A program made the translations under genes and the position numbers. A stretch of DNA of 64,000 bases. It comes from a virus (taxonomy: Duplodnaviria; Caudoviricetes). The notes below the pieces were generated by a model that was given only the letters and a program-made list of their open reading frames with translations, was not told the DNA's origin and searched no databases. The stretch is taken from positions 1-64,000 of IMG/VR virus record IMGVR_UViG_3300028833_000120; one strand, 5' to 3'. Below, piece after piece: positions 7,471-42,319 of this stretch; the stretch's first letter is position 1, and each line of letters starts with the position of its first letter.

Positions 7471-7496
7471 TATTTATGATTTTTTTGTTATATTTA
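7471..7496. promoter_or_regulatory. Back-to-back promoters: late CATAAATA (- strand, 7471-7478) and early/middle TTTTGTTATATTTA (+ strand, 7483-7496)
   Basis: Both motifs recur about 18-20 times upstream of correctly oriented genes. Confidence 0.75.
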
Positions 7497-22112: not shown

Positions 22113-22994
22113 TTAAGAAAACATAATCGGACCAATGACAACACTTGTTTTCACACAATTTTCTTCATCAAACGAAGAAAACTTTATTCTGTTACTATGA
22201 AACTCAATAGTATACAATTTGTCATTGTCAATGTACGAGAAATGTTGCTTATTGAAGCAGCCAAGGAACGAATCACTTCCACTGAAGTTTTCATAGCCTA
22301 TATTACTCAATCTCTTGTTATATACCTTTTCGTAGTCTACGAACTCCTTAAATGCACCCTCATCACCTTCACGATAACGATTGATAATTTCGTTTATCTC
22401 AGAACGAACATTTTCGTCGGTAGGTTCGATTTCGGAAACAAACACATCATCACCATTTTTATAGAAGAATACACGAGCAAACTCCTTATATAGACTGAAA
22501 AGGTTTTGTATATACTTAAACTCATTCTCATTAATATCAATTGAGAATTGTAAATTTGACGTATTCTCGAAAACGTTTTTCTTTTTGTCTTCCTCCATTG
22601 TAAGAAAATCAACTGCCTCTGGGTCTGCACAAACCACATTCAACTCGAATCCGTCTGTGTGGATTGACATCTTCTTTGCAAAGTTGTTGTCTTCAACATA
22701 GAATGTGATATTGACATTTTCGGAACCAATGAGTGGAAGGGCGGAGATAATCTTACTGGCATCACCGAACTGAATCTTCACACACTCATCATCACACTCG
22801 TTTTCATAACTTTCACAAATCTTTTCCAAATCTGACTCAACAGCCTTGACGGCGGTTTTTTGTTTGTTATAGGCGATAGATTCATACTCACTACCCCTAA
22901 CTGTGACGAACATCATTCTGTCCATACTCGAACTTCTCTTGACGAGATTAAGGAAACGCTTGGTTTCCACATTTTTTAGTGAAATCTTTCTCAT
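22113..22994 (-). CDS. Probable sliding clamp (gp45-like)
   Basis: 293-aa acidic alpha/beta protein next to gp47 under an early promoter; no diagnostic motif, inferred from size and context. Confidence 0.45.
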   Translation of the reverse strand: MRKISLKNVETKRFLNLVKRSSSMDRMMFVTVRGSEYESIAYNKQKTAVKAVESDLEKICESYENECDDECVKIQFGDASKIISALPLIGSENVNITFYVEDNNFAKKMSIHTDGFELNVVCADPEAVDFLTMEEDKKKNVFENTSNLQFSIDINENEFKYIQNLFSLYKEFARVFFYKNGDDVFVSEIEPTDENVRSEINEIINRYREGDEGAFKEFVDYEKVYNKRLSNIGYENFSGSDSFLGCFNKQHFSYIDNDKLYTIEFHSNRIKFSSFDEENCVKTSVVIGPIMFS

Positions 22995-23814: not shown

Positions 23815-23861
23815 ATATTAAATATAACAAAAAAGGAGAGATTTTTAAATCTCTCCTTTTT

Positions 23862-25970: not shown

Positions 25971-26040
25971 ATTTTTTGTTTATATTATATTATTTAAAGT
26001 ATTTATGAAAAAAGAAAAAGGAGGATAAACCTCCTTTTAA

Positions 26041-26910: not shown

Positions 26911-26913
26911 ATC

Positions 26914-27660
26914 TTAAATTCCTATTCTTTTTTCTGCAATATCGAAATATTTTTTATTCAATTCTATTCCAATAAAATCCCTGTTCAAATTTCTGCAAGC
27001 GACTCCAGTGGTACCGCTACCCATAGTCATATCCATAACCAAATCACCCTCTTTTGTGTATGTTTTTACAAGATATTCGAGAAGAGCGATGGGTTTCTGT
27101 GTTGGATGCAAATGTGACTTGTCTGTATTGAACTCAAGTATATTGTATGGATATCTCAACGAAGTATCCCTGTCTTTGTGTCTGTATACACCGTTCTTGT
27201 GGTTTTCTGCAAATATCGAAGTTGTTTTACTCTCTTTCGGAAGAGTATATTTTTCACCTTTTATCATCTGTGGATAATAAGGCATTTTCTTCTCACCATA
27301 TCTTGCATAACCGTTTGAAAAAACAGAAATGATTTCTATATTGTTCAACGGTTGGTATGGCGCTTGTGGAAAATTTGACTTCGTGTCTTTTTTCCAAATC
27401 CAGTCATACTTGAACTCATCGACATTTGACATTCTCAACATAGACGAAAACGGTTCCTTACCAAACAGTATAATGGGAATGTAATCTTTACGTAGTTGTT
27501 TTATACACCCCCACAATTCGTCAAACGGAATCACAAAATCCCATTTTTTGCATCGACTTGTACCATAAGGCAAATCACATATAACTGCATCAACTTTCAC
27601 ACCCCATTCAATAAGTTTGTGCATAATATCTATACAATCACCATTATACAGTTCAAACAT
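26914..27660 (-). CDS. Beta-class DNA methyltransferase
   Basis: CDLPY, HPTQKP and DMTMGSGTT. Confidence 0.9.
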   Translation of the reverse strand: MFELYNGDCIDIMHKLIEWGVKVDAVICDLPYGTSRCKKWDFVIPFDELWGCIKQLRKDYIPIILFGKEPFSSMLRMSNVDEFKYDWIWKKDTKSNFPQAPYQPLNNIEIISVFSNGYARYGEKKMPYYPQMIKGEKYTLPKESKTTSIFAENHKNGVYRHKDRDTSLRYPYNILEFNTDKSHLHPTQKPIALLEYLVKTYTKEGDLVMDMTMGSGTTGVACRNLNRDFIGIELNKKYFDIAEKRIGI

Positions 27661-27661
27661 A

Positions 27662-28396
27662 CTAAAAAAGTTTTATTGTATTTTCCACCTCATTCATTCT
27701 TTGTTCGACAATCTTAAAATAACCACAATCCAATTCAATACCTATAAAGTTACGGTTTGTATTGACACAGGCTACGCCGGTTGAACCACTACCCATTGTA
27801 TTATCAAGAACCGTTTCTCCTTCATTGGTATATGTCTTTATAAGATACTCCAAAAGGTCTACCGGTTTCTCATTCGGATGTTGTTTGCTGTAATTATCAA
27901 CACACTTGTATTCAAGGAGATTGTTCGGATACCTTGTTGTATCTCCACCCTCATAATTCCTCTTGTTTCCACCATAATAGATTTTACCGTTGGAACAACC
28001 CTTTGCACTGTTTGTCGGGATATGTCCATCGGACTTTTGTGGGTAATATTCGTGTTTGTAGAAAACACATATTTCCTCTATCTTTCTCAACGGCATCCGT
28101 TTGGCGTGGAAAAAATTTGTCGTCTGGTTTTTTGACCAATACCAGCAATATTTGAAATTTTTTATATTCGAATTTATGAGTTTTGTTGTAAATGGTTGTG
28201 ACGAAAACAACACAACCGGACAATCGTCCTTTCTTACCCTCTTATAATGATTCCACAACAAGTCAAGGTTTATCTCTTTATCCCACTCTTGTGCAGTGCA
28301 GTTATATGGAAGGTCACACAGAATCATATCAATGGATTTGTCTTGAATGCTATTCATAACATCAAAACAATCACTATTAAATAACCTTGTACTCAT
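27662..28396 (-). CDS. Beta-class DNA methyltransferase
   Basis: CDLPY, HPNEKP and DNTMGSGST. Confidence 0.9.
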   Translation of the reverse strand: MSTRLFNSDCFDVMNSIQDKSIDMILCDLPYNCTAQEWDKEINLDLLWNHYKRVRKDDCPVVLFSSQPFTTKLINSNIKNFKYCWYWSKNQTTNFFHAKRMPLRKIEEICVFYKHEYYPQKSDGHIPTNSAKGCSNGKIYYGGNKRNYEGGDTTRYPNNLLEYKCVDNYSKQHPNEKPVDLLEYLIKTYTNEGETVLDNTMGSGSTGVACVNTNRNFIGIELDCGYFKIVEQRMNEVENTIKLF

Positions 28397-28616
28397 TATT
28401 CAAATATAAGTATTCTACTTTACATTTTTCACAAGTTTCCCATTTAATCCATTCGAGTGCCTTTTCAAATGTGTCAAATTCAACATAGTCACTCCATTCA
28501 CCAATATATCCAAAATAATGCCACCAACTCCACCAATGCTTATGTTGTGGGAAATAAGTAACCGAAATCTTTCCGTCGATTCCCTTTGATTTTACTTTCT
28601 TAATTCTATATTTCAT
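28377..28616 (-). CDS. Small Trp-rich hypothetical protein inside the MTase array
   Basis: MKYRIKK...YFPQHKHWWSWWHY; ATG directly after the preceding stop. Confidence 0.65.
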   Translation of the reverse strand: MKYRIKKVKSKGIDGKISVTYFPQHKHWWSWWHYFGYIGEWSDYVEFDTFEKALEWIKWETCEKCKVEYLYLNNEYKVI

Positions 28617-28617
28617 A

Positions 28618-29367
28618 CTAAAATAAAGTTTTATTATTCGACTCAGCTTCAATTATTCTCAGTTTTGCAATCTTGAAAAACCTTTCCTCGATTTCAAATC
28701 CTATAAATTTTCTGTTTGTATTGATGCAAGCGACAGCGGTCGTTCCACTACCTATACAATTGTCCAACACCAATCCACCTTCCGGACAATACGACTTCAC
28801 CAAAAATTCAATCAACTCAACCGGTTTCTGTGTAGGATGTATCTGGTCCTGTCTTCTCCATTTTTGTGGAAAGTCTAAAACCGTGATTGGATGACGTGTT
28901 CCTTTGTTGTCAGTCTCGACACCTTTTATCCCATATCCAAGATTATTCACTTTGTTTGGAGTATACTTTCTTTTATATGGAGTTCCTTTTGACATCTGTG
29001 GTTCATAGTATGCTGCCGACTCACCGAATACAAGTATCATCTCGTGTTTCTTTAACGGCATATACTTTGCCGTAAGAGGAGACCCACACTTCGATTTCTT
29101 CCAAACCATATCATATCTGAAAAGTTTCTCATTTGAGATGGCAAGTTTAAATGCAAAAAGACCGGAACCGAAAAGAATGATATTTCCTTTCGGTTTGATT
29201 ATCCTCTCATATTGTCCCCACAACTTATCGACTGGGAGTTGAACATCCCAATTCATTGATGTTGATTGATAAGGTGGGTCACAAATGATACAGTCAACAG
29301 AATGGTCGTCAATCTTCTTCATCCCTTCAAGACAATCCTCGTTATATATTTTATTAATTTCTAACAT
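28618..29367 (-). CDS. Beta-class DNA methyltransferase
   Basis: CDPPY, HPTQKP and DNCIGSGTT. Confidence 0.92.
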   Translation of the reverse strand: MLEINKIYNEDCLEGMKKIDDHSVDCIICDPPYQSTSMNWDVQLPVDKLWGQYERIIKPKGNIILFGSGLFAFKLAISNEKLFRYDMVWKKSKCGSPLTAKYMPLKKHEMILVFGESAAYYEPQMSKGTPYKRKYTPNKVNNLGYGIKGVETDNKGTRHPITVLDFPQKWRRQDQIHPTQKPVELIEFLVKSYCPEGGLVLDNCIGSGTTAVACINTNRKFIGFEIEERFFKIAKLRIIEAESNNKTLF

Positions 29368-30151
29368 ATTAAAATAAACTATATTCTTTTTCTTGCAATT
29401 CTTCTTTTATTCTCTTACAAGATTTATCATAATATTCTTTGTTCAATTCAAATCCGATAAAATTTCTATTTTCTCTTATACAAGCGATAGCAGTTGTACC
29501 AGACCCCATGCAGTTGTCAAGAACCAAATCATCCTCGTTTGTATATGTACGAACCAAATATGCAACAAGGTCAACTGGTTTCTGTGTCGGATGGATTTTA
29601 GATTTATCACGATTATACTTCAGTATAGATGTCGGGTATCTATCTCCATTATTGACAGTTATAGTTTCTTTATTGTTCTTATAGTCATAATTTGTTCCGA
29701 CACCACCTTGTTTGCATATATAAGGTTTTCCCGTTCCCATCTGTGGGTGGTATGTCATTGCATCATCAGAATTTTTCACAAAACAAGCAGCCTTTTTGGA
29801 AAACACAAGTATATTCTCATGCTTCTTCAATGGGGCAAAATTACTGTTAAGATGACCTGTTCCGGAATCTTTTTCCCATATCCACTCATATTTCAACATC
29901 TCAATATTACTTGCACCAAGTATTTTATCGAAAGGAGTCTGGGCAAACAACACAATTGCTCCAGCTGGTTTTATGATACGTTTATATTCAGTCCATAAAG
30001 AATCGAGTGGTATGACACTATCCCAACTATTCTTTGTTGTCCCATAAGGTAAATCACAAATGATACAATCAATTGATTCATCATCTATCTTCTTCATCCC
30101 TTCAAGACAATCCTCGTTATATATTTTATTGATTTCTAACATATTAAAATA
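29312..30151. repeat. 65-bp direct repeat (29312-29376 and 30087-30151, one mismatch) spanning MTase gene junctions
   Basis: ATCTTCTTCATCCCTTCAAGACAATCCTCGTTATATATTTTATT(A/G)ATTTCTAACATATTAAAATA. Confidence 0.85.
29369..30142 (-). CDS. Beta-class DNA methyltransferase
   Basis: CDLPY, HPTQKP and DNCMGSGTT. Confidence 0.92.
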   Translation of the reverse strand: MLEINKIYNEDCLEGMKKIDDESIDCIICDLPYGTTKNSWDSVIPLDSLWTEYKRIIKPAGAIVLFAQTPFDKILGASNIEMLKYEWIWEKDSGTGHLNSNFAPLKKHENILVFSKKAACFVKNSDDAMTYHPQMGTGKPYICKQGGVGTNYDYKNNKETITVNNGDRYPTSILKYNRDKSKIHPTQKPVDLVAYLVRTYTNEDDLVLDNCMGSGTTAIACIRENRNFIGFELNKEYYDKSCKRIKEELQEKEYSLF

Positions 30152-30884
30152 CTTTTACTTCATTTTGTACTTCTGAAATTCTTCTTTTTGCAATATCGTA
30201 AAATCCTTTGTCTATTTCAAATCCTATGAAATCACGACCGAGATTGAGACAAGCGACACCGGTACTTCCACTACCCATACAACCGTCGAGTACAACATCA
30301 CCTTCGTTTGTTGATATGAATACAATCCTCTCCATCAGTAAAACTGGTTTCTGTGTCGGGTGGTTTGTCTTTTCCTTTGAGTTGTGTGGAAGTGCCGGTA
30401 TATCAGTCCATACATCCGACAGACTAACTCCGTCTTTCAACATACCTTCGGTGTATTCCTTTCTTTTTGTATCTGGTTTCACCTTTATATTATTAAAAAC
30501 CGGTTCGCCTCCAGATTTGGAATAATAAGCAATCGGTTCGTAACCGGAAGCGAGGGAGTGACCCCTCGTATTGTTGAAACCTCTTTTCCTTGCCCAGATG
30601 ATTATCCTTTTCTCAATCAGATATTTATCAAGCATGTTGCATATTTTCCTATTCATTTGTCTTGATGTGAAAAGAAAGATGTTTCCACCGGGTTTCAATA
30701 CACGAACATACTGCACAATCAAAGACTCAACCCATTCAAGATAACCTTGTTCTGACGACCATTGGTTATCAAACTCCGCCTCAACAACACCAAAATAGGG
30801 CAAATCACAGATAATACAATCTATCGAACAATCTTTTATTTTGTTACGTATTCCGTCGACACAATCTTCATTATACAATTCCAT
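30144..30884 (-). CDS. Beta-class DNA methyltransferase (first gene of the MTase operon)
   Basis: CDLPY, HPTQKP and DGCMGSGST. Confidence 0.9.
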   Translation of the reverse strand: MELYNEDCVDGIRNKIKDCSIDCIICDLPYFGVVEAEFDNQWSSEQGYLEWVESLIVQYVRVLKPGGNIFLFTSRQMNRKICNMLDKYLIEKRIIIWARKRGFNNTRGHSLASGYEPIAYYSKSGGEPVFNNIKVKPDTKRKEYTEGMLKDGVSLSDVWTDIPALPHNSKEKTNHPTQKPVLLMERIVFISTNEGDVVLDGCMGSGSTGVACLNLGRDFIGFEIDKGFYDIAKRRISEVQNEVKVF

Positions 30885-30900
30885 ACACTAAATATAACAA

Positions 30901-30962
30901 ATTACATAAATAACATATACATAAAAAAAAAATTACATAAATAACATATACATAAAAAAAAA
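30901..30962 (+). repeat. Perfect 2 x 31-bp tandem duplication containing the late promoter
   Basis: ATTACATAAATAACATATACATAAAAAAAAA twice. Confidence 0.9.
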
Positions 30963-30965
30963 GAT

Positions 30966-31433
30966 ATGATTAAGAAATTTGAAAATTTTATAAACGAAAA
31001 TGCATCAAATGGTATTTTTCCAAAAAAATTACAAGAACATATAGAGTTTATAATACAATCTCTAAAAAAATCAGAAGATAAAGATAAAAATATATCTGCT
31101 TTCTTTACAAGTACAAAAGATGAAGAAAGAAATGAAATAAAACGAATGTTGGAAAAAGAACTTGGTGATGATTTATTCATAATCAATAAAGACATTGATT
31201 CAACTGAAGATATGGAAAAAACCATTGAAGAAAATAAAGGTAAAGTATTCTATTTCACTCATTTTAAATCAAAAGAAATGTTGAAAGTAATATGTGCAAC
31301 ACCATTGAAACACAATTGTGTCATAAACATATGCACAACAAACGAACCAGAAGGAAAACTCTGGGGTGAAATATTTAAAGAACGTTTTACTTGGATTTGT
31401 AACATTTCAGAATTAAAAGATTTATGGAAATAA
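30966..31433 (+). CDS. Putative head-packaged internal protein
   Basis: N-terminus MIKKFENFINE; late promoter upstream; terminator at 31441-31466. Confidence 0.65.
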   Translation: MIKKFENFINENASNGIFPKKLQEHIEFIIQSLKKSEDKDKNISAFFTSTKDEERNEIKRMLEKELGDDLFIINKDIDSTEDMEKTIEENKGKVFYFTHFKSKEMLKVICATPLKHNCVINICTTNEPEGKLWGEIFKERFTWICNISELKDLWK

Positions 31434-31472
31434 ACAAAATAAAAGGAGGTCGATTGACCTCCTTTTATTTTT

Positions 31473-32156
31473 CTACCATAACGGAATGTCATCAACCTTT
31501 CCGTCGAACCTTTCCATATTTCCGGTGTCCCAATTCATTATTTTAGCAGGAATTTCAGTTTCCGGAAGACACATTGACACTCCATCCATCCTGAAAAGGT
31601 TATAAGAGACGATTTCTGCCCATTTTTTTACCTCTGTGGGGTCTTTACCGAACTTTGTGGTAAAACTCTCCACAACGGCAGATAAAACGTTCTCACGGGC
31701 AAGAAACAATGAATCTTCCTGCCACTCGTATCCATAAGTTGATTTAAGTGCAAGTTCCGCCAATCGGTACCATTCTTTTTCATCATTGGTTTTTATTCTC
31801 TGAAGTTTTCTGTCAAGAATACCAACCCTCTTGTTGATTGGAATCTTCTCACCACTCGAAACATCATAGAGTGTTGTGAGATATGGTGCTTCACCACAAG
31901 TCACTTCAAGAACTTTTCTTTTGATATATTCCTCATCAGAACCTTTATATTCCTCATCAAACATATCATTCATTCTTTTCACCACCTCAATCGGAGTAAA
32001 AACCTCCGCTTTCTCTTTCGTCCTTGCAGTCTGTACATCGACATTCTTTAAGTAACGTGGTACAACTTCATCAACATTTACATTGAGTTTTCCACCGGTT
32101 GTACGTTCTTCAAGTAAAATTTCTTTTATATTCTTATCTATATTCATTTCAAACAT
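31473..32156 (-). CDS. SAM-binding half of a gamma-class amino-methyltransferase (no catalytic motif IV)
   Basis: EVFTP (motif X), LEVTCGEAPYL (I), YGYEWQ (II), RMDG (III); no NPPY. Confidence 0.75.
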   Translation of the reverse strand: MFEMNIDKNIKEILLEERTTGGKLNVNVDEVVPRYLKNVDVQTARTKEKAEVFTPIEVVKRMNDMFDEEYKGSDEEYIKRKVLEVTCGEAPYLTTLYDVSSGEKIPINKRVGILDRKLQRIKTNDEKEWYRLAELALKSTYGYEWQEDSLFLARENVLSAVVESFTTKFGKDPTEVKKWAEIVSYNLFRMDGVSMCLPETEIPAKIMNWDTGNMERFDGKVDDIPLW

Positions 32157-33016
32157 CTGTCTTTTCTTTTCCTTTCAAAATCAAATCCATTAACATATTC
32201 AAGTATTTCATCTACATCCTCTTCCTCACACCCGACACTAAACAGAAGTTCCCTCTCATTTTCAATCTTCGAGTAGTCAATATCAGGAAACAATCTCCAC
32301 ACCTTTCTTTTCATATTCCTATCGTCTTGACAAATCCACAGACAAAACCTCATAAGATTGGTATGAAGTAAATTCCATACATTCTTTGCAGACTTTTTAT
32401 CACAGAAACCGAGAACAACCTTCGTTGTTGTATCAGTCCTGAAAAACTTGTTTTCCTCTTCGAGACTCAACACACCGACATTCTCCAAAGACTTCTGTGC
32501 AATCCACTTTCCGTTTTCCTTATAGTTTGCATAACTAACATTGATAAACCAAGAATATTGGTTCAACTTCTTCAAGTCTTTTGTTTTATTCCAGTTATAA
32601 TAGTCCTTATTCCAACTACCATACATAGTGACGGTGTGTTTGTACATCTTCTCTTCTTTATCCATAAGAGAACATATCTTTTTTTCTATGTGATTCAGAA
32701 GAATATTATCACCAAAATTCAGTCTGAAATCAAAATTCTTTGAACCTTTCTTGCAAAAATAGATTGCTGGGTCTGTCATTTGTGTTTCTTGAAACAATAC
32801 ACTATCCACAATCTCTATCCTCTCACATCCGAGTCTTTTCAAGAACGTTCTCTCCCTCTCCATTCTCATATCATACAAACATTTAGATGGCATAATGAAA
32901 CAGAGTTTGTCATCAAACACACAAGTACTTGACTTCATTATATTGAAATGAAGCAATCTACTTCCCACCTTATCATGTCCGTATGGTGGATTGCCCACGA
33001 TTACATCAAATCTCAT
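32144..33016 (-). CDS. Catalytic/target-recognition half of a gamma-class (Eco57I/TaqI-like) methyltransferase
   Basis: Begins directly at MRFDVIVGNPPY, has FIMP; no motif I. Confidence 0.75.
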   Translation of the reverse strand: MRFDVIVGNPPYGHDKVGSRLLHFNIMKSSTCVFDDKLCFIMPSKCLYDMRMERERTFLKRLGCERIEIVDSVLFQETQMTDPAIYFCKKGSKNFDFRLNFGDNILLNHIEKKICSLMDKEEKMYKHTVTMYGSWNKDYYNWNKTKDLKKLNQYSWFINVSYANYKENGKWIAQKSLENVGVLSLEEENKFFRTDTTTKVVLGFCDKKSAKNVWNLLHTNLMRFCLWICQDDRNMKRKVWRLFPDIDYSKIENERELLFSVGCEEEDVDEILEYVNGFDFERKRKDRCLK

Positions 33017-33020
33017 ATAC

Positions 33021-33043
33021 TAAATATAACAAATACATAAATA
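33021..33043. promoter_or_regulatory. Compact divergent early (-) / late (+) promoter cassette; similar cassettes at 30889-30912 and 35751-35772
   Basis: TAAATATAACAAA immediately followed by CATAAATA. Confidence 0.75.
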
Positions 33044-33064
33044 ATATAAATCAAAACAAAATTT

Positions 33065-33451
33065 ATGGAACTTAAAAATTTTGAAGAATTTATCAGTGAG
33101 AATGTAAATCAAAATTCAGATTTAATATTTTTCTGTAAACATTCTGACTTCTGTACATATTGTCCTCTGTTTCACGGTGGTAGTAGTAGAACTTGTCACG
33201 ACCACGAAGGAATCTTTGTATCAAAAGACACAAGAATTGAAAACGGAAACGAACTCGTATGGGTTTGCATAAACGGTGAATGGAGTTGGCAGAAGAAAGA
33301 TATAGAACCATCAAAATTCGACAACAGTAAAACTTCAAAAAGAAGAATCATAGACGGTAAAAAATGCAGATTCTACAAAGGTCATTGGGTTGATATTGAT
33401 AACAAAGATGTTATAGTGAAAGACTATACAAACGATGTATTTGGTGAATAA
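33065..33451 (+). CDS. Putative internal protein, Cys/His-rich
   Basis: MELKNFEEFISE; CxHxxxCxxC; late promoter; terminator at 33465-33491. Confidence 0.65.
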   Translation: MELKNFEEFISENVNQNSDLIFFCKHSDFCTYCPLFHGGSSRTCHDHEGIFVSKDTRIENGNELVWVCINGEWSWQKKDIEPSKFDNSKTSKRRIIDGKKCRFYKGHWVDIDNKDVIVKDYTNDVFGE

Positions 33452-33490
33452 AACTTATAAAACAAAAAGGAGGTCAAACGACCTCCTTTT

Positions 33491-33854
33491 TTATTGTAGT
33501 TGTTCCTTCCAAGTTTTCCCACACTTCCGGCAAGTGTAAACTCGATAAGTGTTGTGAACTTTATGTTTTCCGAACTCCGTCTTGTTTCCATTTTCATCAA
33601 GATATTCTTCCTCATACGAAATTGATGAGTTGTTGTAACAGTTGTGGTATATCTTATCTGGTAGTGAAAACTCTTCGTTGATTATCATAAGAATCACAAG
33701 TGCCCACGACATAAAGACACACAACAATATACCTGGTATCAAAAAACAACTTCGGATGGTCATAGTCTTTATACTCACGAATTTTTTTGTTACCGAGCAA
33801 AGCGATAACGATACCTATTGTCCAAAAGATTATAAGTGCAAGTATGTTGTTCAT
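33491..33854 (-). CDS. Two-TM membrane protein with C-terminal CxxC, split by a +1 frame break
   Basis: ORF 33654..33854 (first TM) and ORF 33491..33778 (second TM, CRKC) join if one base is removed from the homopolymer at 33741-33746 or 33782-33788. Confidence 0.5.
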
Positions 33855-33861
33855 ATTTTTA

Positions 33862-34128
33862 TTAAAATTTATATGTCCTACAATCCATCGGTGGATATTT
33901 TACTTCCAGAAGTCCCAACACAGACCTTACATTTTTTGATGCTTTCACGGCTTCATCGTAATTGTTATAAACCGCCCATTGGTTTCCACCACGTACAACT
34001 TCCATTCTTTCGACCGTCATATTGTATCCACAATCGGCGAGGTTCTCCACAAGGAAATCGAGGTCTCTCAAATACCACCAGTTCCCATATTTCTTGACAA
34101 ATCTTTTTTTATTGTTCTTCGGTATCAT
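33862..34128 (-). CDS. Hypothetical protein
   Basis: Likely start MIPKNNKK. Confidence 0.6.
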   Translation of the reverse strand: MIPKNNKKRFVKKYGNWWYLRDLDFLVENLADCGYNMTVERMEVVRGGNQWAVYNNYDEAVKASKNVRSVLGLLEVKYPPMDCRTYKF

Positions 34129-34969
34129 TGTTCGTTTTATTTTTTGATAAAATATCTTCAAACTCTTTAATCATTTCATCATTTATAAATTTATAACCAT
34201 CTGCTTTTCTACTCTTTTTAATAAACCAACTAAACATTCTTCTTGTATTTGTATCACAAAAATCTGGCATCGAATATGGGTTTGTTGAAACAAATGCTTT
34301 TATTACACTATGATAAAAATCATTTTTTTGTATATATAATTCGATTTCTTTACGATTTGCAACTCTAAATGATTTCTCATCATAGTCCAAATTTTGTAAA
34401 TAATCATCTTTCCATTCAAAATCTTCATCATACCCAACAAGACTTTTGAAAAAATCATCACGTATATCTTCAAATTCAACCAAACATTTTCCTTTACAAG
34501 TATTTACAACATAAACAACAAACGGCATAATTTTCTTTCCATTTATTGTGATACCTTTTTTTCTTATACCTATTGGCATTGTTTCATTACAATGAAACGC
34601 TGATAAATCATTCAATTTTATAGAAATATCATATAAACCTATAGCAGTCATTCGTAATTGTCCTTTGTGGTTTCCTATGAAATACAATGTACCAAAATCA
34701 CCCTCTTCAGTTACACCTTCAATCCAAATAAGATTATCACAACGAATATCAAACATATATTCATCATTTAATTTGATGCAACCAGAATTTTTTGGATGAA
34801 AATCGGTTTCACCACTATCAATGAGTTTATTTTTTTCATAACAAAATAAACAATGTTTATCATCATCGTTTTCTAAAAACATTTTTGCTGTATCACTAAA
34901 CTTTGACATCTTCTTCAATTCTGACATTATAGTTTCATCAGAAACTGATAAATAATTATAAATTTTCAT
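34109..34969 (-). CDS. Hypothetical protein
   Basis: 286-aa ORF co-oriented in the operon. Confidence 0.7.
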   Translation of the reverse strand: MKIYNYLSVSDETIMSELKKMSKFSDTAKMFLENDDDKHCLFCYEKNKLIDSGETDFHPKNSGCIKLNDEYMFDIRCDNLIWIEGVTEEGDFGTLYFIGNHKGQLRMTAIGLYDISIKLNDLSAFHCNETMPIGIRKKGITINGKKIMPFVVYVVNTCKGKCLVEFEDIRDDFFKSLVGYDEDFEWKDDYLQNLDYDEKSFRVANRKEIELYIQKNDFYHSVIKAFVSTNPYSMPDFCDTNTRRMFSWFIKKSRKADGYKFINDEMIKEFEDILSKNKTNNDTEEQ

Positions 34970-34993
34970 ATTCTTATTTTTTTAGTTTATATC

Positions 34994-35746
34994 TTACCAC
35001 AACCCTTCGACAGGTTCATCAACTTCCTTAATCAATCTTTCATTTGCAAATTTTACATACTCATCAGATATTTCAAACCCTATGAAATTCCTTCCAGTCT
35101 GTTTTGCCGCCACGGCAGTCGTCCCACTCCCCATAAAGGGGTCGAGTATCAAATCACCTTCTTTCGAAAAAAGGGTTATTAGTTTCTTTGCAAAATCAAC
35201 AGGGAAACAAGCCCCATGAGTTGATGTGTTATTCTGTTTATGAAAACCAGAAATCACATTGTTTTGCATCCCACGACCGAAATACGAGTTGTTTATCACA
35301 CGACCTTTCTTATCGTCACCCTCCAAAATAACAACAAATTCGTAACAAGAGTTCAATACTTTGTCGTGCATCGCCGGTTGCCCCCCTTTGTGCCAAATCA
35401 TAATGTCTTTTATATATGGTGAGAAATCACCAAGCAGTCTGAAGAACGCTTCCTTGGAACCCGTGACAATTTGGTAGTTGTAACACACAATCTTCGACAC
35501 TCTCAACAACTCTGTCAAAACATCTTTGTGAAAATAATAGTATTCTTCAATAGGAAGGTCATCACCGAAATATTTATACTTCTTACTGAAGTGCTCACCG
35601 TGCTCTCTTACAGTATATTGTCCTTCACGGATACGAGTTCTCATGTTATAAGGTGGTGACGTAAGTACCATATCAACAGACTTGTCTGGAAGTTTCTTCA
35701 ACCCTTCAAGACAGTCTTGGCTATATATTTTGTTTATCTCCAACAT
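34994..35746 (-). CDS. Beta-class DNA methyltransferase
   Basis: Start at MLEINKIY; TSPPY, HGACFP and DPFMGSGTT. Confidence 0.92.
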   Translation of the reverse strand: MLEINKIYSQDCLEGLKKLPDKSVDMVLTSPPYNMRTRIREGQYTVREHGEHFSKKYKYFGDDLPIEEYYYFHKDVLTELLRVSKIVCYNYQIVTGSKEAFFRLLGDFSPYIKDIMIWHKGGQPAMHDKVLNSCYEFVVILEGDDKKGRVINNSYFGRGMQNNVISGFHKQNNTSTHGACFPVDFAKKLITLFSKEGDLILDPFMGSGTTAVAAKQTGRNFIGFEISDEYVKFANERLIKEVDEPVEGLW

Positions 35747-35795
35747 ACAATAAATATAACAAAACATAAATAAGTTATATAAATAAAAAAGAAAC

Positions 35796-36017
35796 ATGAT
35801 TAAAACATTTGAAGATTTCAGTAGAACAAAAATTGAACCAAAATTATACAGTGGTATATTACAATACAGTGGTGAGGAAACCACAGGACAACTTATAGTA
35901 TTTAACAACAATATGTACATATTGTCGGATGAAAATATTTTTGAAGGTAACAACACAATTTTAATCGGTGCCGACGAAGAGACATTGGTAGACCCTAACA
36001 CGGTAAAAGAACTATAA
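35796..36017 (+). CDS. Putative small internal protein
   Basis: MIKTFEDF; CATAAATA at 35765. Confidence 0.6.
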   Translation: MIKTFEDFSRTKIEPKLYSGILQYSGEETTGQLIVFNNNMYILSDENIFEGNNTILIGADEETLVDPNTVKEL

Positions 36018-36062
36018 GTGATAAACTATAAGACATAAACAAATTATATAAATAAAAAAACT

Positions 36063-36410
36063 ATGATTAAAAAATTTGAAGAATTTGTAAACGAATCTCT
36101 AAACCAATTAGATTTTGAACCAATTTTGTGGGGTGTTGAAATCTTTGATGATGAGATGGAGGATGACAAAGGTATTTCCGTAACTCTTGAAAGAGGTGCC
36201 GGTGGTGGTCGAGAACTTATTGAATCACACTGGAAAGTATATGCAATTGAGGATTTGGATGACAGATGGAACGTAAAGGCTATCTGCATCGATTCCGAAG
36301 ATAGAAGATACCAACCAGATGATGAGATTGATTTTGAAGTCAATAAAGACGATGATGTTTGGGACCTTGAATCTTTATTGCAAGATGCTCTTGATAAAGA
36401 AGGATTCTAG
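36063..36410 (+). CDS. Putative small acidic internal protein
   Basis: MIKKFEEFVNES; very D/E-rich; terminator at 36412-36441. Confidence 0.65.
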   Translation: MIKKFEEFVNESLNQLDFEPILWGVEIFDDEMEDDKGISVTLERGAGGGRELIESHWKVYAIEDLDDRWNVKAICIDSEDRRYQPDDEIDFEVNKDDDVWDLESLLQDALDKEGF

Positions 36411-36455
36411 TAAAAAAGACAACACATGGTTGTCTTTTTTTGTTATATTTAATAT

Positions 36456-37226
36456 ATGTTGGAAATAAACCGAATATATAACCAAAATTGTCTCGAAGGT
36501 ATGAAAGAGATAGATGACAAGTCAATCGACTGCATCATCTGTGATTTACCTTATGAGGTTCTCAATAAATCGAATGAAAACGCCAAATGGGACGTTGTGA
36601 TACCTTTTGACAAACTATGGGAACAATACAACAGAATAATCAAGGACAACGGTGCTATATTACTTTTTGGACAGGGTATGTTCACTGCACAGTTGATGAT
36701 GAGTAATTCTTCAATGTGGAGGTATAATCTTATATGGAAAAAAGGAAACCGTTCCACTGGTTTCCTGAATGCAAAAAGGATGCCTCTTCGTAACCACGAA
36801 GACATTGTTGTATTCTACAAGAAACTTCCGACATATAATCCACAGAAAACAGTTGGTGCCAAAAATCATTCACGTGGTTATATGAAAAACGAACAAAAAA
36901 ACCAATGCTATGGTAAATTTGATGCTTCCTTATCCGAAAATGATTTTTCAGGTATGAAGTATCCGACGAGTATAATTGATGTTGAGAAAGAACATTGTAA
37001 GACATTCCACCCGACACAGAAACCGGTTGAACTTATATCATACTTGATAAAGACTTATACAAATGAAGGAGACTTGGTTCTAGACAATTGCATGGGAAGT
37101 GGAACAACTGCAATCGCCTGTATAAAAGAAAACAGAAACTTTATCGGATTTGAAACAAACGAAGAATATTTTGATAAAGCAAACAAAAGAATAAATGATG
37201 AAAAATCAATAGTAAAATTGTTTTAA
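36456..37226 (+). CDS. Beta-class DNA methyltransferase
   Basis: CDLPY, HPTQKP and DNCMGSGTT; promoter at 36437-36451. Confidence 0.92.
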   Translation: MLEINRIYNQNCLEGMKEIDDKSIDCIICDLPYEVLNKSNENAKWDVVIPFDKLWEQYNRIIKDNGAILLFGQGMFTAQLMMSNSSMWRYNLIWKKGNRSTGFLNAKRMPLRNHEDIVVFYKKLPTYNPQKTVGAKNHSRGYMKNEQKNQCYGKFDASLSENDFSGMKYPTSIIDVEKEHCKTFHPTQKPVELISYLIKTYTNEGDLVLDNCMGSGTTAIACIKENRNFIGFETNEEYFDKANKRINDEKSIVKLF

Positions 37227-37241
37227 CAAAAAAGGTTGGAG

Positions 37242-38120
37242 TCATCTTCCAACCTTTTTTGTTTTCCAACCATATTCTTTCATTTTCTCGTGAATATACT
37301 CCATGTCTTTTTTTGACAGTCCAAACTCATCCATCAACGACTCATCCGAATAGTCCACATTATTGGGTTGTGATGGAATCATTTTTAACAGGGATTTAGG
37401 ACATTTTGTAGATTTTTTGAAAAACATTATTACAAAAAGAACCAAGTCAGTATTCAACCATTCTATAAATTTTTTACTGGAGTCCTCACTCGAGAATGTG
37501 AAAACGTTCCATTGTCCGTCAGATATTTCCTTATGTGGTGAAAGATTTTCTTGTGTAAATAAAGTTGGCCAGTCCCATTCATAATTTCCACCATCACGGA
37601 CATGACCACGATGAACCGATAGAAGACAATGCCAACCGAATGGTATATTGTATATTTTCTTAACTCTTTCCTCTCCATGTATGTCAGCGAGTGACATAAA
37701 CGACATCTCTTTTAAATCCAAACTTTTATGTTTGGAAATTTTTTCAATAATCTCCTTATTTTTGAAATGTTCCCCACCAAACCGGATGTTCTTTACAAAG
37801 TCACTCGTTATTCCATATTTTCCTTTCTTTGAAAATGTAAAGATACCGACACCACGTATGATATCAACTGTTCCGAATATATTCCTCAAACCTTCATCAT
37901 ATTCAAAACCAGATAGCATCAACGACGAATATTTCTCACAGAATCTTTTATAATGTGGGTCTTTTTCGTTCATATTGTCGACTACCGATGTCGGGTTTAT
38001 CAGGCACATAACACTTTCATCATCCATATTGTTATCGTATATAGATTTGGTTATCTGTATATACAAAGGGTCCCAGTGACCTTGGTATGGTGGATTGCCT
38101 ACTATAATATCAAATATCAT
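37242..38120 (-). CDS. Second stand-alone NPPY catalytic/TRD half of a gamma-class methyltransferase
   Basis: Begins MIFDIIVGNPPY, has LINP; no motif I. Confidence 0.75.
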   Translation of the reverse strand: MIFDIIVGNPPYQGHWDPLYIQITKSIYDNNMDDESVMCLINPTSVVDNMNEKDPHYKRFCEKYSSLMLSGFEYDEGLRNIFGTVDIIRGVGIFTFSKKGKYGITSDFVKNIRFGGEHFKNKEIIEKISKHKSLDLKEMSFMSLADIHGEERVKKIYNIPFGWHCLLSVHRGHVRDGGNYEWDWPTLFTQENLSPHKEISDGQWNVFTFSSEDSSKKFIEWLNTDLVLFVIMFFKKSTKCPKSLLKMIPSQPNNVDYSDESLMDEFGLSKKDMEYIHEKMKEYGWKTKKVGR

Positions 38121-38167
38121 ATATTAAAAATAACAAACGGAAGATTTTTTTAGTCTTCCGTTCTTAT

Positions 38168-39307
38168 TTATTTCAATTTTTCGTGGTTTCCATAGGCAGT
38201 CTTTGGTATGATTGCAAGTGTGATTGGGAGGATGGATGCAACACCCCATTTCTGAAGTTCAAGACAGATGTCATCAAGTGTTGCACCGGAAGATATGTTG
38301 TCATCGAATATAACAACATGTTTTCCTTTAAGTTTAAGTCTCATATCTTTCAATTTTGGATTTATTACAAAAAGACCTTCGATAGACCTTCTGTGTTTAT
38401 CATCCAAAGACTTGATTTCAAATTTCTTTGCCCTTCCGTTTTCGTCCTTTGTTTTATCTTTACCTCTTCTACCAAAATTATGTCTCCTAATTTTTATGAG
38501 TTCCTCTATGGCCTTTATCTCATTTTTTTTATCCGTCACATCCCGTGTAGGTCTTCCTCTTTTTCCGATTGCATATGCAATAGAATCATTCAGTTCATCA
38601 ACCCTGACCCTTAAATTATAAATGTCTGCATCGAATTGCCAATTCTCAATATCTTTTTGAAGTTTATGTATCTCCATGTCTGTAAGACCGATACTCTTTG
38701 CAACATCTGTATTAACAACGACATTTTTTATATCTTTGATAAGCAAGTCTGGAATACACTTGATACCCGGTGAATCCTTGTATCTCTTCATTATATACTC
38801 AACCATATCCTTGTTGAAATCACTAGAACTCTGTGGAAAAGTTATTATATCGATTGGATTATCTTTTAAAAGATGATATATGTACAAAGATGTCCTCTTC
38901 ATAAATTTGTCGATTGAATCAAAGTCTATATTTCTCTTTTCTATATTCTTGAACTTACTTGGGTGTTTCAAGGCCATAGAAACTCTCATATCCGATATTT
39001 TATATAGGTTGTATGACATCACGTTACTTTTTGGTAGAAGTACTTCATGATATTCAAATTTTTTATCGTCATTGAATATTTCGGTAGATGTTGAATCTGT
39101 ATCATTCTTACCTGGTGTAAATCTAAAAGTTCTGTCGCTTGAACGACCACGTGACCCGAAAGACCATCCTTCACTGCATAAATCAATTTTATCATACCCC
39201 ATCTCATGTTCCTCTTCCATAAGAAGTTCGATAAAATCAAATATAGACAATGAATCTTCAATTATAACATTATCTACAAATTCATCATATGTTTTTATAT
39301 TATTCAT
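38168..39307 (-). CDS. Type I phosphoribosyltransferase-domain protein, late gene with capsid-targeting-like N-terminus
   Basis: PRPP loop VVIFDDNISSGATL; PQSSS; MNNIKTYDEFVD; CATAAATA at 39332-39339. Confidence 0.75.
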   Translation of the reverse strand: MNNIKTYDEFVDNVIIEDSLSIFDFIELLMEEEHEMGYDKIDLCSEGWSFGSRGRSSDRTFRFTPGKNDTDSTSTEIFNDDKKFEYHEVLLPKSNVMSYNLYKISDMRVSMALKHPSKFKNIEKRNIDFDSIDKFMKRTSLYIYHLLKDNPIDIITFPQSSSDFNKDMVEYIMKRYKDSPGIKCIPDLLIKDIKNVVVNTDVAKSIGLTDMEIHKLQKDIENWQFDADIYNLRVRVDELNDSIAYAIGKRGRPTRDVTDKKNEIKAIEELIKIRRHNFGRRGKDKTKDENGRAKKFEIKSLDDKHRRSIEGLFVINPKLKDMRLKLKGKHVVIFDDNISSGATLDDICLELQKWGVASILPITLAIIPKTAYGNHEKLK

Positions 39308-39378: not shown

Positions 39379-40599
39379 TTAAAACAGAGGAACATCGTGT
39401 GACATGCTTATGTCGATTGGTGAATATCCCATAGCCTCCACAATTCTGTTCATTGGTCCAAGAATAAGCAGGTCGAACATTTTGTCGTAATCGATTTCAA
39501 AACCACTTGCCATATCCATTGGATAATTACCGGCTGGATATGAAAACGCCTGTATAGGTTCTTTCATCTGACAGTCTATATAATAGTCAACATTCCCACG
39601 TTTTTCGATGATTCCACCTTTCGTGAATCTGACTTCTTGATGTTTTCTTACATTTGCAATGTCAGAAACCTTGATTTCACAACATTTCCAGTAAGTATAC
39701 CTTTGTGTTGGTTTTATATATATCACACACAGTTTATCACTGTCAACAAGTGCCGTATATTTTCTTTTATACTTTTCATTACTATTCAACAACCAGTTAT
39801 AGAATGATGCACCCTGCACAGTCACCATCGCCTTTTGCATAAGTTCAATTTCACCAACGTCGGATAAGACATACTCTCCATATTTGTTCATTCCTTTGTT
39901 AACTGAAATCGTCTCAAAGTTCTGCATCATAAAACTTTTCTTGACTGCTTTCATCTGTTTGACAAAACCCTCGATTGTGAATTTTTCTTGTTTGAATATC
40001 CACTTAATCAAATCAGTCATCTGCTTCTTGACCCAAGTCGAACTAGATGTCTGTGCAATCTCAATACCGGTCGGTTTGATTTTAGTGCAAGAATCATAGT
40101 AAACATTTGGCTCAGCCCAAGTGGTATTCTTCACATACTTTTTCTTAGCGAGCCAGATACCAGCCTCATTGTATGCCTCCAACTCGAAGTCGAGAATATT
40201 AGGTGTTCCCTGCTTGGCGGCATAGTCCTCATGTATCTTCTTCAAGAAGTCCTTCATAAACACACGGTCAAGAGTAAGACAGAACTCACGACCTGCTGGT
40301 TCTATTTTATCAATCTCAAAATCATACTTTTCTTTATCGATTGAATCGACATCAAAATATTGTCTTGCATCATCTTCAGTCGGATAACCACCGGAAGACA
40401 CATACACGAATTCTTTCTGGTCATTCGACTTGTTAATCTTGGTGAGTCTCCACACGTCGTGTAACATCCAATCAGTTGAATTTACAATCTCATAAAATGA
40501 ACAGTATACACTATCAGTATCTATGTATCTACTTATAGGTGAGATAGTTACATTTTTATCTGGGATAAACACCCATTTTTTTATGTGTTTTTTCATCAA
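39379..40599 (-). CDS. gp43: Family B DNA polymerase, C-terminal part (palm motif C, thumb)
   Basis: YIDTDS, FELE, AKKKY and GIE; ends VPLF. Confidence 0.88.
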   Translation of the reverse strand: MMKKHIKKWVFIPDKNVTISPISRYIDTDSVYCSFYEIVNSTDWMLHDVWRLTKINKSNDQKEFVYVSSGGYPTEDDARQYFDVDSIDKEKYDFEIDKIEPAGREFCLTLDRVFMKDFLKKIHEDYAAKQGTPNILDFELEAYNEAGIWLAKKKYVKNTTWAEPNVYYDSCTKIKPTGIEIAQTSSSTWVKKQMTDLIKWIFKQEKFTIEGFVKQMKAVKKSFMMQNFETISVNKGMNKYGEYVLSDVGEIELMQKAMVTVQGASFYNWLLNSNEKYKRKYTALVDSDKLCVIYIKPTQRYTYWKCCEIKVSDIANVRKHQEVRFTKGGIIEKRGNVDYYIDCQMKEPIQAFSYPAGNYPMDMASGFEIDYDKMFDLLILGPMNRIVEAMGYSPIDISMSHDVPLF

Positions 40600-42319
40600 T
40601 AATCCAACCTTTTTGTGCCCATAGATTCATAAGTCTCTCGGCGTTCAAGATGGCGTGCTTACCTTGTTTCGTAACAGATTCAGCAATATTCTTGTTATAG
40701 AAATAAAAACCGGAGAATCCGAAAGCGCCATAGATACCGTTAATTACGACCTTTGTACCAAGCTGATAGTTGTTGTAGATGTCTGCCTGTGTAGTACAGA
40801 AAGTAAGAACAACATCCATTTGTTTACCAATCAAATCACCAAGGTCGTTCTTTTTCATATAGTCTTCTATCTCTTCTTGACTTGCACCATTGTGCATAAG
40901 GTCTTTCAAGTCATAGTAGCACTGTGTGTATTTGAACGATGTCTTCTTGTATGCCTTTCTTTTGAAATAAAGGTCTGTGATAATCTTCTTCAAATTACCG
41001 TCCTCTTTCTCATAGACTGCACCGGAAGCACATACAATATAACCCTTATCTCTCCACTGTTGTTTCAGTTCCTCATCATCTTCGGGAAGCATCTTGACAA
41101 GTGTTTCCGGACCGATATTGAACTGTCTCATCAAAGACGGATAAAGTGAGGCGTAGTCGTTACATGTGCAATACTTGTGAAGACCTGGAACAGGCTGCTT
41201 GACGAATGCCCCTTCATATTTCTCACCATCACCTTTCTTCTTTGGTTTCGGAGAAACTGCAAGGACACGACCTTGTTCAGCAAACTTCTGTCTTAAAAGA
41301 TTTTCAGGAATATATGTAGTAGAGAAACAATCCATTGCACGGATATGACCCAACCATGCAGTGGTGATACCACAAGTCAATGCATTACACTTCTCGTGGA
41401 TGAGTTTTACGAGACCACAGTCGATAGCGTTGTAATACACATACTTTTGAAAGTTATTATTGAACATATCATCGAGACTCTCACTGTGCTGTACTTTTTT
41501 GATACCACAGAGTTTCTCCCCGATATAGTCGAGTTTGTAATTCTCATTGGAGTTCCAAGTCCATTTCTTGTATGCTTTCAAATAGTCGATAAGACCGACG
41601 TGACATGGACGCTCAAACTGACCAGTCATTTTATGAGTAGGTGACGAAATGTTTATATTTATTTCAAGTTTTTTCGCCCTGTTTATGATATACCTCCAGT
41701 CATATTCCTCAAAGTTCCAACCGGTCATCATAGCCATATTCGGAACAAGTTTGTTCAAGAAGAAATACAACATGTCATATTCCGTATTAAAACAACGGAA
41801 AGCGAACTTGAACTTACGGTTTACTTGTGCAAAATGGTCGTCAATTTGCTTTTGAATATCCTCAATTTGTTTCCTGTTTAAGTTCTTGCCGGAAGAAAGA
41901 ACCATGATAGTATCGTTTGGACAACACACACCGATAACCGTTATCGGTTTATCTGCCTTTTCTGGGTCTGGTTTTCCCTCTTGCATCAAGTTCTCAATAT
42001 CGATAAAAAACATTTCAGGAAGATTATATGAGAATATCCTTTCCTTTACATCTTCCGGAAGATTGTCAACAATCTCATACATCCTATATCTATTCAAGAC
42101 ATGTTTTGGATTTGTGAGATTTAACTTGTGTTTCCACACCTTGTCTTTGTTCCAGTTTTTGACCGTTCCACCGGGTTCATCTTTTTTATCGATGGGTTCT
42201 GTGAGCCAAGTGTACCAATCCTTTTCTTGAATTGGAATCACATCGATGTGTGTCTTGTGGTCATCCCCCCAATAGGAGATTTCCAAATTTGTTCCGTTTT
42301 GTACTAAATCTAATAACAT
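40556..42319 (-). CDS. gp43: Family B DNA polymerase, N-terminal part (3'-5' exonuclease, motifs A and B)
   Basis: FIDIE, GWNFEEYD, YNAID, DYASLYPS and KVVINGIYG. Confidence 0.9.
   Translation of the reverse strand: MLLDLVQNGTNLEISYWGDDHKTHIDVIPIQEKDWYTWLTEPIDKKDEPGGTVKNWNKDKVWKHKLNLTNPKHVLNRYRMYEIVDNLPEDVKERIFSYNLPEMFFIDIENLMQEGKPDPEKADKPITVIGVCCPNDTIMVLSSGKNLNRKQIEDIQKQIDDHFAQVNRKFKFAFRCFNTEYDMLYFFLNKLVPNMAMMTGWNFEEYDWRYIINRAKKLEININISSPTHKMTGQFERPCHVGLIDYLKAYKKWTWNSNENYKLDYIGEKLCGIKKVQHSESLDDMFNNNFQKYVYYNAIDCGLVKLIHEKCNALTCGITTAWLGHIRAMDCFSTTYIPENLLRQKFAEQGRVLAVSPKPKKKGDGEKYEGAFVKQPVPGLHKYCTCNDYASLYPSLMRQFNIGPETLVKMLPEDDEELKQQWRDKGYIVCASGAVYEKEDGNLKKIITDLYFKRKAYKKTSFKYTQCYYDLKDLMHNGASQEEIEDYMKKNDLGDLIGKQMDVVLTFCTTQADIYNNYQLGTKVVINGIYGAFGFSGFYFYNKNIAESVTKQGKHAILNAERLMNLWAQKGWIIDEKTHKKMGVYPR

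Follow-up and report, generated by a model that had tools for sequence, protein, structure and literature searches.

DNA methyltransferases of the gamma class, such as Eco57I, TaqI, CamA and M.BseCI, are single chains which typically present motifs X, I, II, III and IV (named here by the usual nomenclature) and then a target-recognition domain. In the Type I (HsdM and HsdS) and Type IIB (BcgI A and B) systems specificity resides in a separate subunit, exchangeable by swapping; there the methylase subunit forms a whole domain by itself, and DNA reading is all that the exchanged subunit does. M.AquI and M.EcoHK31I are natural cytosine-5 methyltransferases made of two polypeptides, the former being cut within its variable region and the small subunit of the latter carrying only motif IX, according to PMC3404938. 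The available text of a jumbo-phage survey (PMC7824862) describes methylase clades and permuted forms, and no split form. Here we analyze positions 1 to 64,000 (64,000 nucleotides, hereafter the window) of the IMG/VR virus record IMGVR_UViG_3300028833_000120 (Duplodnaviria; Caudoviricetes), an 85-kilobase (kb) record with a GC content of about 33% which is estimated to cover about 31% of the genome. In this window, three minus-strand genes probably specify a methyltransferase of another layout, namely one half binding S-adenosylmethionine (SAM), at 31473..32156 and called the SAM half, and two divergent catalytic halves with target-recognition domains, NPPY1 at 32144..33016 and NPPY2 at 37242..38120.

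Laid end to end, the two kinds of halves have the same motifs in the same order as the single-chain gamma enzymes, the folds of both match, and the C-terminal recognition domain resembles that of CamA, M.BseCI and M.TaqI. The phage enzyme differs from them in being cut between motifs III and IV, in having the gene of the C-terminal part upstream, and in offering its single N-terminal part a choice of two C-terminal ones. It would share with M.AquI and M.EcoHK31I the construction of a DNA methyltransferase from two polypeptides, however it would be an amino-methyltransferase, cut between the SAM-binding and the catalytic subdomains and with alternative partners. Unlike the Type I and Type IIB systems, the swapped subunit here would comprise half of the catalytic fold together with the NPPY loop and the recognition domain. 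In the open-access subset of the literature we found no paper on a natural amino-methyltransferase split at this point, which is not proof of novelty.

The SAM half is an open reading frame (ORF) of 227 amino acids with the motif strings EVFTP, LEVTCGEAP, YGYEWQEDS and FRMDG, which are conserved with the fused relatives as EVFTP, LEVTCGEAP, Y.YE.Q.DS and N..(R/Q)MDG. When the SAM-only and the fused relatives are aligned, the residues of motifs I, II and III are invariant in 11/11 sequences, and the stretches LEVTCGEAP, GLLDRKL, Y.YE.Q.DS..LAR and N..QMDG are invariant or nearly so; the SAM-only proteins all end 8-14 residues short of the motif IV of the fused relatives, 'KFD..IGNPPY'. No match of the SAM half was found in Pfam or PHROGs, none of use in NCBIfam, and none by sequence search of the PDB. 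By tblastn it matches the N-terminal part of a 546-residue 'Eco57I domain' protein of Fusobacterium phage FNU4, and also the 335-residue gp279 of Tenacibaculum phage PTm1; the nearest single-chain relatives by sequence are FNU4 gp28 and Faecalibacterium proteins of 647-671 amino acids. An AlphaFold2 model of the SAM half has a predicted local distance difference test score (pLDDT) of 85.6. Foldseek by itself was uninformative, giving no PDB match at E <= 0.001, and the structural matches rest on structural re-alignment: the best is with MmeI (Z 10.3, root-mean-square deviation 2.9, 141 residues), then with residues 13-158 of CamA (Z 10.0, deviation 3.4, 131 residues), and the next are BsaXI, LlaBIII, LlaGI, DrdV and BrxX/PglX, all being gamma-type adenine methylase domains. 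Judged from alignment and model, the SAM half corresponds to the N-terminal SAM-binding part of an Eco57I/TaqI/CamA-like gamma-class N6-adenine DNA methyltransferase, and the original prediction that it holds motifs X, I, II and III only agrees with its alignment to the N-terminal parts of fused relatives and to CamA 13-158.

The two catalytic halves, NPPY1 (290 amino acids, beginning MRFDVIVGNPPY) and NPPY2 (292 amino acids, beginning MIFDIIVGNPPY), start at motif IV with the pattern FD.IVGNPPY, and GNPPY stands at residues 8-12 in both. They can be aligned with each other only over the first 57 residues or so (21/57 identical, E 3e-5), hence their bodies are divergent, just as had been noticed from the sequence at the outset. 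In the NPPY1 family the N-P-P of motif IV is invariant in 15/15 aligned rows, and in the NPPY2 family in 21/21, of which 15 begin exactly at motif IV; the remaining six, together with P0138 and P0139 of the NPPY1 family, have an N-terminal extension of their own of about 80-150 amino acids. The NPPY1 model (pLDDT 83.7) matches residues 158-577 of CamA with its residues 1-263 (Z 8.9, deviation 4.6, 237 aligned), M.BseCI 126-576 with Z 8.8 and M.TaqI 97-412 with Z 6.6, the matched span beginning with motif IV and taking in the whole C-terminal target-recognition domain. Since the SAM half matches CamA 13-158 and NPPY1 matches CamA 158-577, they are complementary parts of one known enzyme type, and sequence and models alike indicate a division of the chain into two proteins, with the cut falling between motifs III and IV. 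The gamma-class order X-I-II-III-IV and recognition domain is thus found here on two polypeptides instead of one, with the gene for motif IV and the recognition domain upstream. The order NPPY1 then SAM half resembles that of the beta class (IV, recognition domain, X-I-III), but on two chains, and the beta-class family PF01555 matches none of the three proteins, while it matches five neighbouring genes.

At the locus, NPPY1 comes first on the minus strand and shares 13 bases with the 227-residue SAM-half frame, which is the reverse of the fused order, as was originally stated. The SAM half may begin at the ATG at 32156 (227 amino acids) or at a second in-frame ATG at 32147 (224 amino acids), the latter making an ATGA overlap with the NPPY1 stop TGA; either start is possible because many homologues have 224 amino acids. 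A terminator-like hairpin of 16 pairs followed by a T run (31436..31471, minus strand) stands directly 3' of the SAM-half stop and closes the NPPY1/SAM-half unit. NPPY2 lies about 5 kb from this unit and is flanked by a hairpin and a convergent gene; the hairpin, at 38136..38162 between NPPY2 and the gene 38168..39307 (minus strand), was scored on the plus strand and may set NPPY2 apart as a unit by itself. An exact copy of the word TTTGTTATATTTA is found at 33021..33033 (minus strand), 4 bases 5' of the NPPY1 ATG, as a candidate phage promoter or operon-start signal, and a copy with 1 mismatch at 38125..38137 (minus strand), 4 bases 5' of the NPPY2 ATG. Of the earlier claim that each NPPY gene has its own promoter, the presence of a common signal before both starts holds, and its nature as a promoter remains that of a candidate, a generic sigma-70 scan having given 33 sites, fewer than in shuffles (40.7). 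All three reading frames are intact. For the SAM half the ratio of nonsynonymous to synonymous substitution rates (dN/dS), taken against orthologues in related contigs, amounts to 0.09-0.18, and for NPPY2 to 0.07; synonymous changes are saturated for NPPY1 against the relative L008, which leaves no ratio for this gene, and for NPPY2 against L088. The SAM half and NPPY2, the two measurable genes, are under purifying selection.

A prediction of the complex, the check proposed with the original prediction, was made for the SAM half with NPPY2, the less obvious pair, together with the SAM ligand, in three runs and with three controls. The interface score (interaction prediction score from aligned errors, ipSAE) has a median of 0.93, the best control being 0.00; the same mark is reached by 116/157 solved complexes and 2/215 mismatched pairs, in a calibration set which is without small molecules and was made with other alignments. 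At least 94% of contacts are common to the runs, and the pLDDT of the partner is at least 85. Confidently predicted contacts link residues 80-87 of the SAM half, the strand that leads into motif I, to residues 1-13 of NPPY2, the strand that leads into NPPY, in the way in which beta1 pairs with beta4 when a Rossmann fold is intact. We take this result as consistency with, and not proof of, an assembly of the SAM half and NPPY2.

In the scheme which we propose, the three genes give an N6-adenine DNA methyltransferase of the gamma type (Eco57I/TaqI/CamA) with two subunits, split between beta3 and beta4 of the Rossmann fold. In this scheme the 227-residue SAM half would provide the SAM-binding strands beta1-beta3 with motifs X, I, II and III, each NPPY protein would provide beta4-beta7 and the catalytic NPPY loop along with a DNA-recognition domain of its own, and the pairing of beta1 of the former with beta4 of the latter would rebuild a single active site. 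One SAM subunit might then serve two catalytic and specificity subunits, and the phage would methylate DNA with two specificities. NPPY1 and the SAM half would form one transcription unit, probably coupled in translation, with NPPY2 as a separate unit, and the likely purpose would be self-methylation of the phage DNA against host restriction. We consider it probable that the halves form a two-subunit methyltransferase and, with somewhat less assurance, still rather likely that one SAM half is shared by both NPPY proteins. Complementary folds, copy numbers, relatives, purifying selection and the complex model thus lend computational support to the heterodimer with exchangeable specificity which was first suggested from the sequence.

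As to copy numbers, the SAM-half profile matches one ORF in the 85-kb record and the NPPY profiles match two, and the profile search, which also bears on the suggestion to look for more halves or a separate partner of NPPY2, detected no further N-terminal half in this record. For the short alternative N-terminal extensions of some NPPY relatives, only chance-level matches to a stand-alone homologue were obtained there. In a survey of relatives, where L numbers denote loci and G numbers genomes or contigs, a scan of IMG/VR viral contigs with a single protein query gave nothing and an alignment query was needed; the latter found a SAM-half relative encoded in 368/375 candidate stretches, and in the best 80 loci, which were kept, the gene is SAM-only in all 80. 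Eight of these loci (L006-L013) are on contigs of 59-412 kb, which we take as relatives of the phage, and each of the 5/5 related jumbo records searched has exactly one SAM half. In G002, which is 96% complete, an NPPY2-type gene, a beta-class methylase gene and the SAM half are contiguous on one strand, and the NPPY2-type half is the only NPPY-only gene, 0.8 kb upstream of the single SAM half. An NPPY1-type gene stands upstream of the SAM half in G011, both NPPY types accompany the SAM half in G012 (L014) as in the window, and in G001 about 11 kb separate the SAM half from an orthologue of NPPY2 (97% identical). The related contigs thus retain a single SAM half with either or both NPPY types, a pattern that would be expected of exchangeable subunits.

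The same layout is found in Tenacibaculum phages PTm1 and PTm5. In PTm1 an NPPY-only gene (gp277, 344 amino acids, starting MKFDIIVGNPPY) is followed by the SAM-only gp279, with the split point and the gene order as here. It differs in that a helix-turn-helix gene lies between the two and that there is one NPPY half only; gp279 itself differs from the SAM half in its length of 335 amino acids, a Cys-rich insert and the absence of the L-W tail. A PF07669 search of the PTm1 genome gave a strong match to gp277 and one weak match; gp279 is its SAM half, no search for a second one having been made. The two products are annotated as 'DNA methyltransferase' and 'restriction endonuclease subunit M', and neither the product names of the records nor the available text of PMC7824862 presents the pair as one enzyme in two pieces. 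Other phages and, as shown below, bacteria also have the split layout, of which we found no description.

Several observations weigh against the scheme. The record holds about 31% of the genome, and another SAM half may lie elsewhere. The Eco57I family PF07669 scores NPPY1 at 21.5 and NPPY2 at 19.8 bits, under the cut-off of 25.3, with the match confined to the NPPY stretch, whereas fused and giant relatives exceed the cut-off. The pass of the complex model may reflect memory of, or likeness to, solved single-chain gamma methyltransferases. Moreover, only 3/80 viral SAM-only loci have an NPPY-only gene within 6 kb, and the metagenome NPPY1-type loci L163, L164 and L167 are without a SAM half within 4 kb, in a scan with the NPPY1 alignment whose 10 loci are too few for statistics of gene order. 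In the jumbo contigs G003, G005 and G014 NPPY modules occur only in ORFs of 477-484 amino acids or at the C-terminal end of helicase-like proteins of about 1800-1930 amino acids. At the same time, no match to PF07669 at E <= 1 was found in 5/5 complete (98-100%) SAM-only phage genomes of 57-63 kb (G006-G010), and no methylase-like motif IV in the 2 genomes with a lone SAM half that were scanned in full.

The partial record also gives room to the alternative that the SAM half pairs only with its operon partner NPPY1, with NPPY2 using another N-terminal half from the unsampled 69% or so of the genome and nothing being shared. The position of NPPY2 as a separate unit 5 kb away suits this account, and so do those relatives of NPPY1 and NPPY2 which do not start at motif IV but bear a short N-terminal extension of their own. 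However, in the nearly complete G002 the one SAM half is found with an NPPY2-type half as the only NPPY-only gene, all 5 relatives have a single SAM half, the short extensions are without a homologue in the 85-kb record, and the predicted complex that passed is precisely that with NPPY2. On balance we regard a separate partner for NPPY2 as unlikely.

The family to which the SAM half belongs is large, with 4998 clusters of 124-398 amino acids, and the 120 of them that were listed carry no Pfam family. In a library at 50% identity there are 1199 representatives at E <= 0.001, and the best 150 of them were sorted by motif expressions into 112 SAM-only, 38 fused in gamma order and 0 fused in beta order, at least P0224 and P0239 among the 112 being misfiled by these expressions, as they are fused by Pfam with variant motifs. 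Among the 80 viral loci, 71 (L015-L085) come from contigs that range from 10 to 115 kb, most of them having 50-63 kb, with a GC content of 49% in two that were measured; phages of this type have a SAM-only half-methylase of 260-320 amino acids ending in ..LFKDVGEDD. The lone SAM halves in complete phage genomes make it evident that members of the family can occur where the phage itself encodes no NPPY partner, and these copies show that a host partner or a second role exists. When an NPPY-only partner was sought in 3 bacterial genomes, Eco57I-type matches were found in 2/3, in open frames of 205-3111 amino acids, none clearly NPPY-only. Prophage-like lone SAM-only copies occur in Faecalibacterium (L113, L130), and Faecalibacterium genomes also hold the fused relatives of 647-671 amino acids.

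From this side it may be argued that the SAM half acts alone or together with some protein of the host, for instance in regulation through SAM binding, as a factor tethered to the clamp or as a decoy against restriction, the vicinity of NPPY genes being incidental or secondary. Apart from the size of the family and the five complete genomes without an NPPY module, this argument can draw on the own C-terminal L-W or L-F tail of the SAM half, like that of the polymerase, and on the position of its gene between a DNA polymerase gene and a clamp-like gene in G003, G005 and G014. Nevertheless, NPPY-only proteins are without motifs X, I, II and III and therefore cannot bind SAM partnerless, the SAM half forms an operon and overlaps with NPPY1 in the window, and the gene order is conserved in PTm1, G002, G011 and G012. 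The complex model also speaks against it, yet a lone role and a role with NPPY proteins are not mutually exclusive. As a replacement for the two-subunit methyltransferase, a SAM half acting alone seems to us improbable, to much the same degree as the separate partner.

That the three genes are decaying, non-functional remnants of a rearranged single-chain methyltransferase is hardly credible, for though the reversed gene order, the weak Pfam scores and two metagenome NPPY1 copies shortened to 192 amino acids (L161, L162) could point that way, the frames are intact with the same ends in thousands of clusters, dN/dS is 0.07-0.18, the catalytic and SAM-binding motifs are invariant, and the upstream word and the terminator are in place. 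A simple frameshift, already doubted at first sight, or a pseudogene is ruled out by the reversed order, the intact frames and the low dN/dS.

In bacteria, SAM-only loci were found in Prevotella, Bacteroidales, Bifidobacterium, Akkermansia and others, and 17/26 of the bacterial SAM-only genes are directly followed by the gene of a 1093-1559-residue protein with a ResIII helicase and an Eco57I part, in which NPPY lies near residue 950-1220. The SAM-only gene there precedes this giant, in difference from the phage locus with its small NPPY-only gene. The SAM-only family clearly keeps company with NPPY modules. Further 13 bacterial loci, mostly of Faecalibacterium, have fused proteins of 582-716 amino acids in gamma order, and the short ORF L112 was also scored as fused by motif expression. 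In the giants, strings like motif X and motif I can be seen by eye in what might be a SAM-binding region of their own; however, hhalign gave this candidate region a probability of only 0.5% against the SAM-half profile, and phmmer gave no match of it to the PDB. The two-gene bacterial unit (L114-L149, for example L116 4830-9845) consists of a SAM-only protein of about 330-360 amino acids and then the helicase-methylase giant, which is Type IIG by PADLOC; we found no description in the literature of a role for the extra SAM-only subunit beside it. Similar giants exist within jumbo phages: proteins of about 1800 amino acids, L093 2664-8051 (G005) and L094 2778-8219 (G003), have a ResIII helicase region and a C-terminal NPPY1-like module (MKWSLVVGNPPY at residue about 1429), and their N-terminal 233-861 matches the PADLOC Type IIG model, so that they look like restriction-modification giants within a phage.

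The suspicion that similar half-genes exist in bacterial restriction-modification loci has thus turned out right, both beside the giants and in the PADLOC models. PADLOC-DB PDLC03390 'MTase_II' (327 positions) matches SAM-only proteins, the bacterial L116 with E 3.6e-118 over positions 3-315 and the SAM half of the window with E 9.7e-50 and 167 bits in two stretches, the best being 75-200 to 139-268 of 327. PDLC03375 'MTase_II' (348 positions) spans motif IV to the C-terminus in fused and giant relatives, and the bacterial giants match PDLC03626 'REase_MTase_IIG' (Type IIG); for NPPY1 and NPPY2 there is no PADLOC model at E <= 0.001. Given PDLC03390 and PDLC03375, the catalogues already hold models matching the SAM-only half and the NPPY part, and together with the half-genes in bacterial loci this lowers the novelty.

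A broader and speculative reading, to which we give a small chance, is that the stand-alone SAM half with 'LEVTCGEAP' is a widespread, unrecognised and portable cofactor subunit for interchangeable catalytic and recognition modules, namely the NPPY-only proteins of jumbo phages, the helicase-fused giants of bacteria and possibly host-encoded ones for the phages with lone copies. Here its L-W tail would tether it to the sliding clamp, making methylation keep step with the replication fork, and the order of NPPY then SAM half would be a living fission intermediate of a gamma-to-beta circular permutation of amino-methyltransferases.

With regard to the tail, the C-terminal ends are DDIPLW in the SAM half, CLK in NPPY1 and VGR in NPPY2, and it is found only on the SAM half among the three proteins, as first observed. 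In the window, 13/67 non-overlapping ORFs, lying between 8056 and 60034, end in [LVIM][FW], about 1 being expected from composition. Besides the SAM half they comprise eight whole methylases, three unknowns and the C-terminal piece of the DNA polymerase (39379..40599, ending VPLF). The tails of relatives are GLW in the whole polymerase and LSLF or IALF in the SAM half. T4 polymerase binds its clamp via a C-terminal tail, and by analogy the shared tail may dock the methylases, the SAM half and the polymerase on a sliding clamp and couple methylation to replication. The likely clamp is the 293-residue product of 22116..22994 (minus strand), for which the only lead is that its protein-atlas neighbours have the gp45-slide_C, DNA_PPF and PCNA_N families; it has no PHROG match, and its homologue adjoins the SAM half or the DNA polymerase gene in relatives.

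The split enzyme lies amid a methylase island (23047-37226) with nine whole DNA methylase genes besides it in about 15 kb, eight beta-class-like and one Dam-like, at 23047, 26041, 26914, 27662, 28618, 29369, 30144, 34994 and 36456. A scan of five of these genes gave matches to PF01555 in each; the four others are assigned from DPPY/SPPY and FxGxG motifs only, 26041 being Dam-like by its motifs alone. The word TTTGTTATATTTA has 47 copies within 2 mismatches in comparison with 13.9 +/- 3.6 in shuffles, and 15 copies are exact, including those at 7484, 13576, 23030, 23819, 30889, 33021, 35751, 36439, 42372, 42413, 48516, 59055, 60039 and 61242. It often stands 4-5 bases before a start codon that heads a gene cluster, which makes it a candidate phage promoter or start signal, and its position moves the start of the 34994 methylase from 36001 to 35746. 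Directly upstream of NPPY2, the gene 38168..39307 (379 amino acids) has a weak C-terminal match to the phosphoribosyltransferase domain PF00156 (21 bits, below the cut-off), and its homologue also adjoins the NPPY2 orthologue in G001 (L087). The family-B DNA polymerase is found in two minus-strand ORFs overlapping by 44 bases, 40556..42319 (587 amino acids) and 39379..40599 (406 amino acids), and is a single gene of about 976 amino acids in the relatives L009, L010 and L012; the two ORFs may have arisen through a split of the gene, a frameshift or a mistake in the assembly.

Should the halves assemble, the phage would possess a natural amino-methyltransferase whose Rossmann fold is divided between two chains and in which one SAM subunit serves several catalytic and recognition subunits. 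Such an arrangement would be a cheap route for a phage to multiply its methylation specificities, and also a ready-made scaffold for split, programmable adenine methylases; to our knowledge, split programmable methylases have so far been artificial, mainly from cytosine-5 enzymes. It bears as well on the origin of the alpha, beta and gamma motif orders, for which Jeltsch in 1999 and Bujnicki in 2002 reportedly put forward models, since a route by fission and reordering needs viable split intermediates. What is more, genome annotation counts such halves as whole methyltransferases, and the finding would assign a function to a large family of 4998 clusters which is now labelled 'hypothetical protein'.

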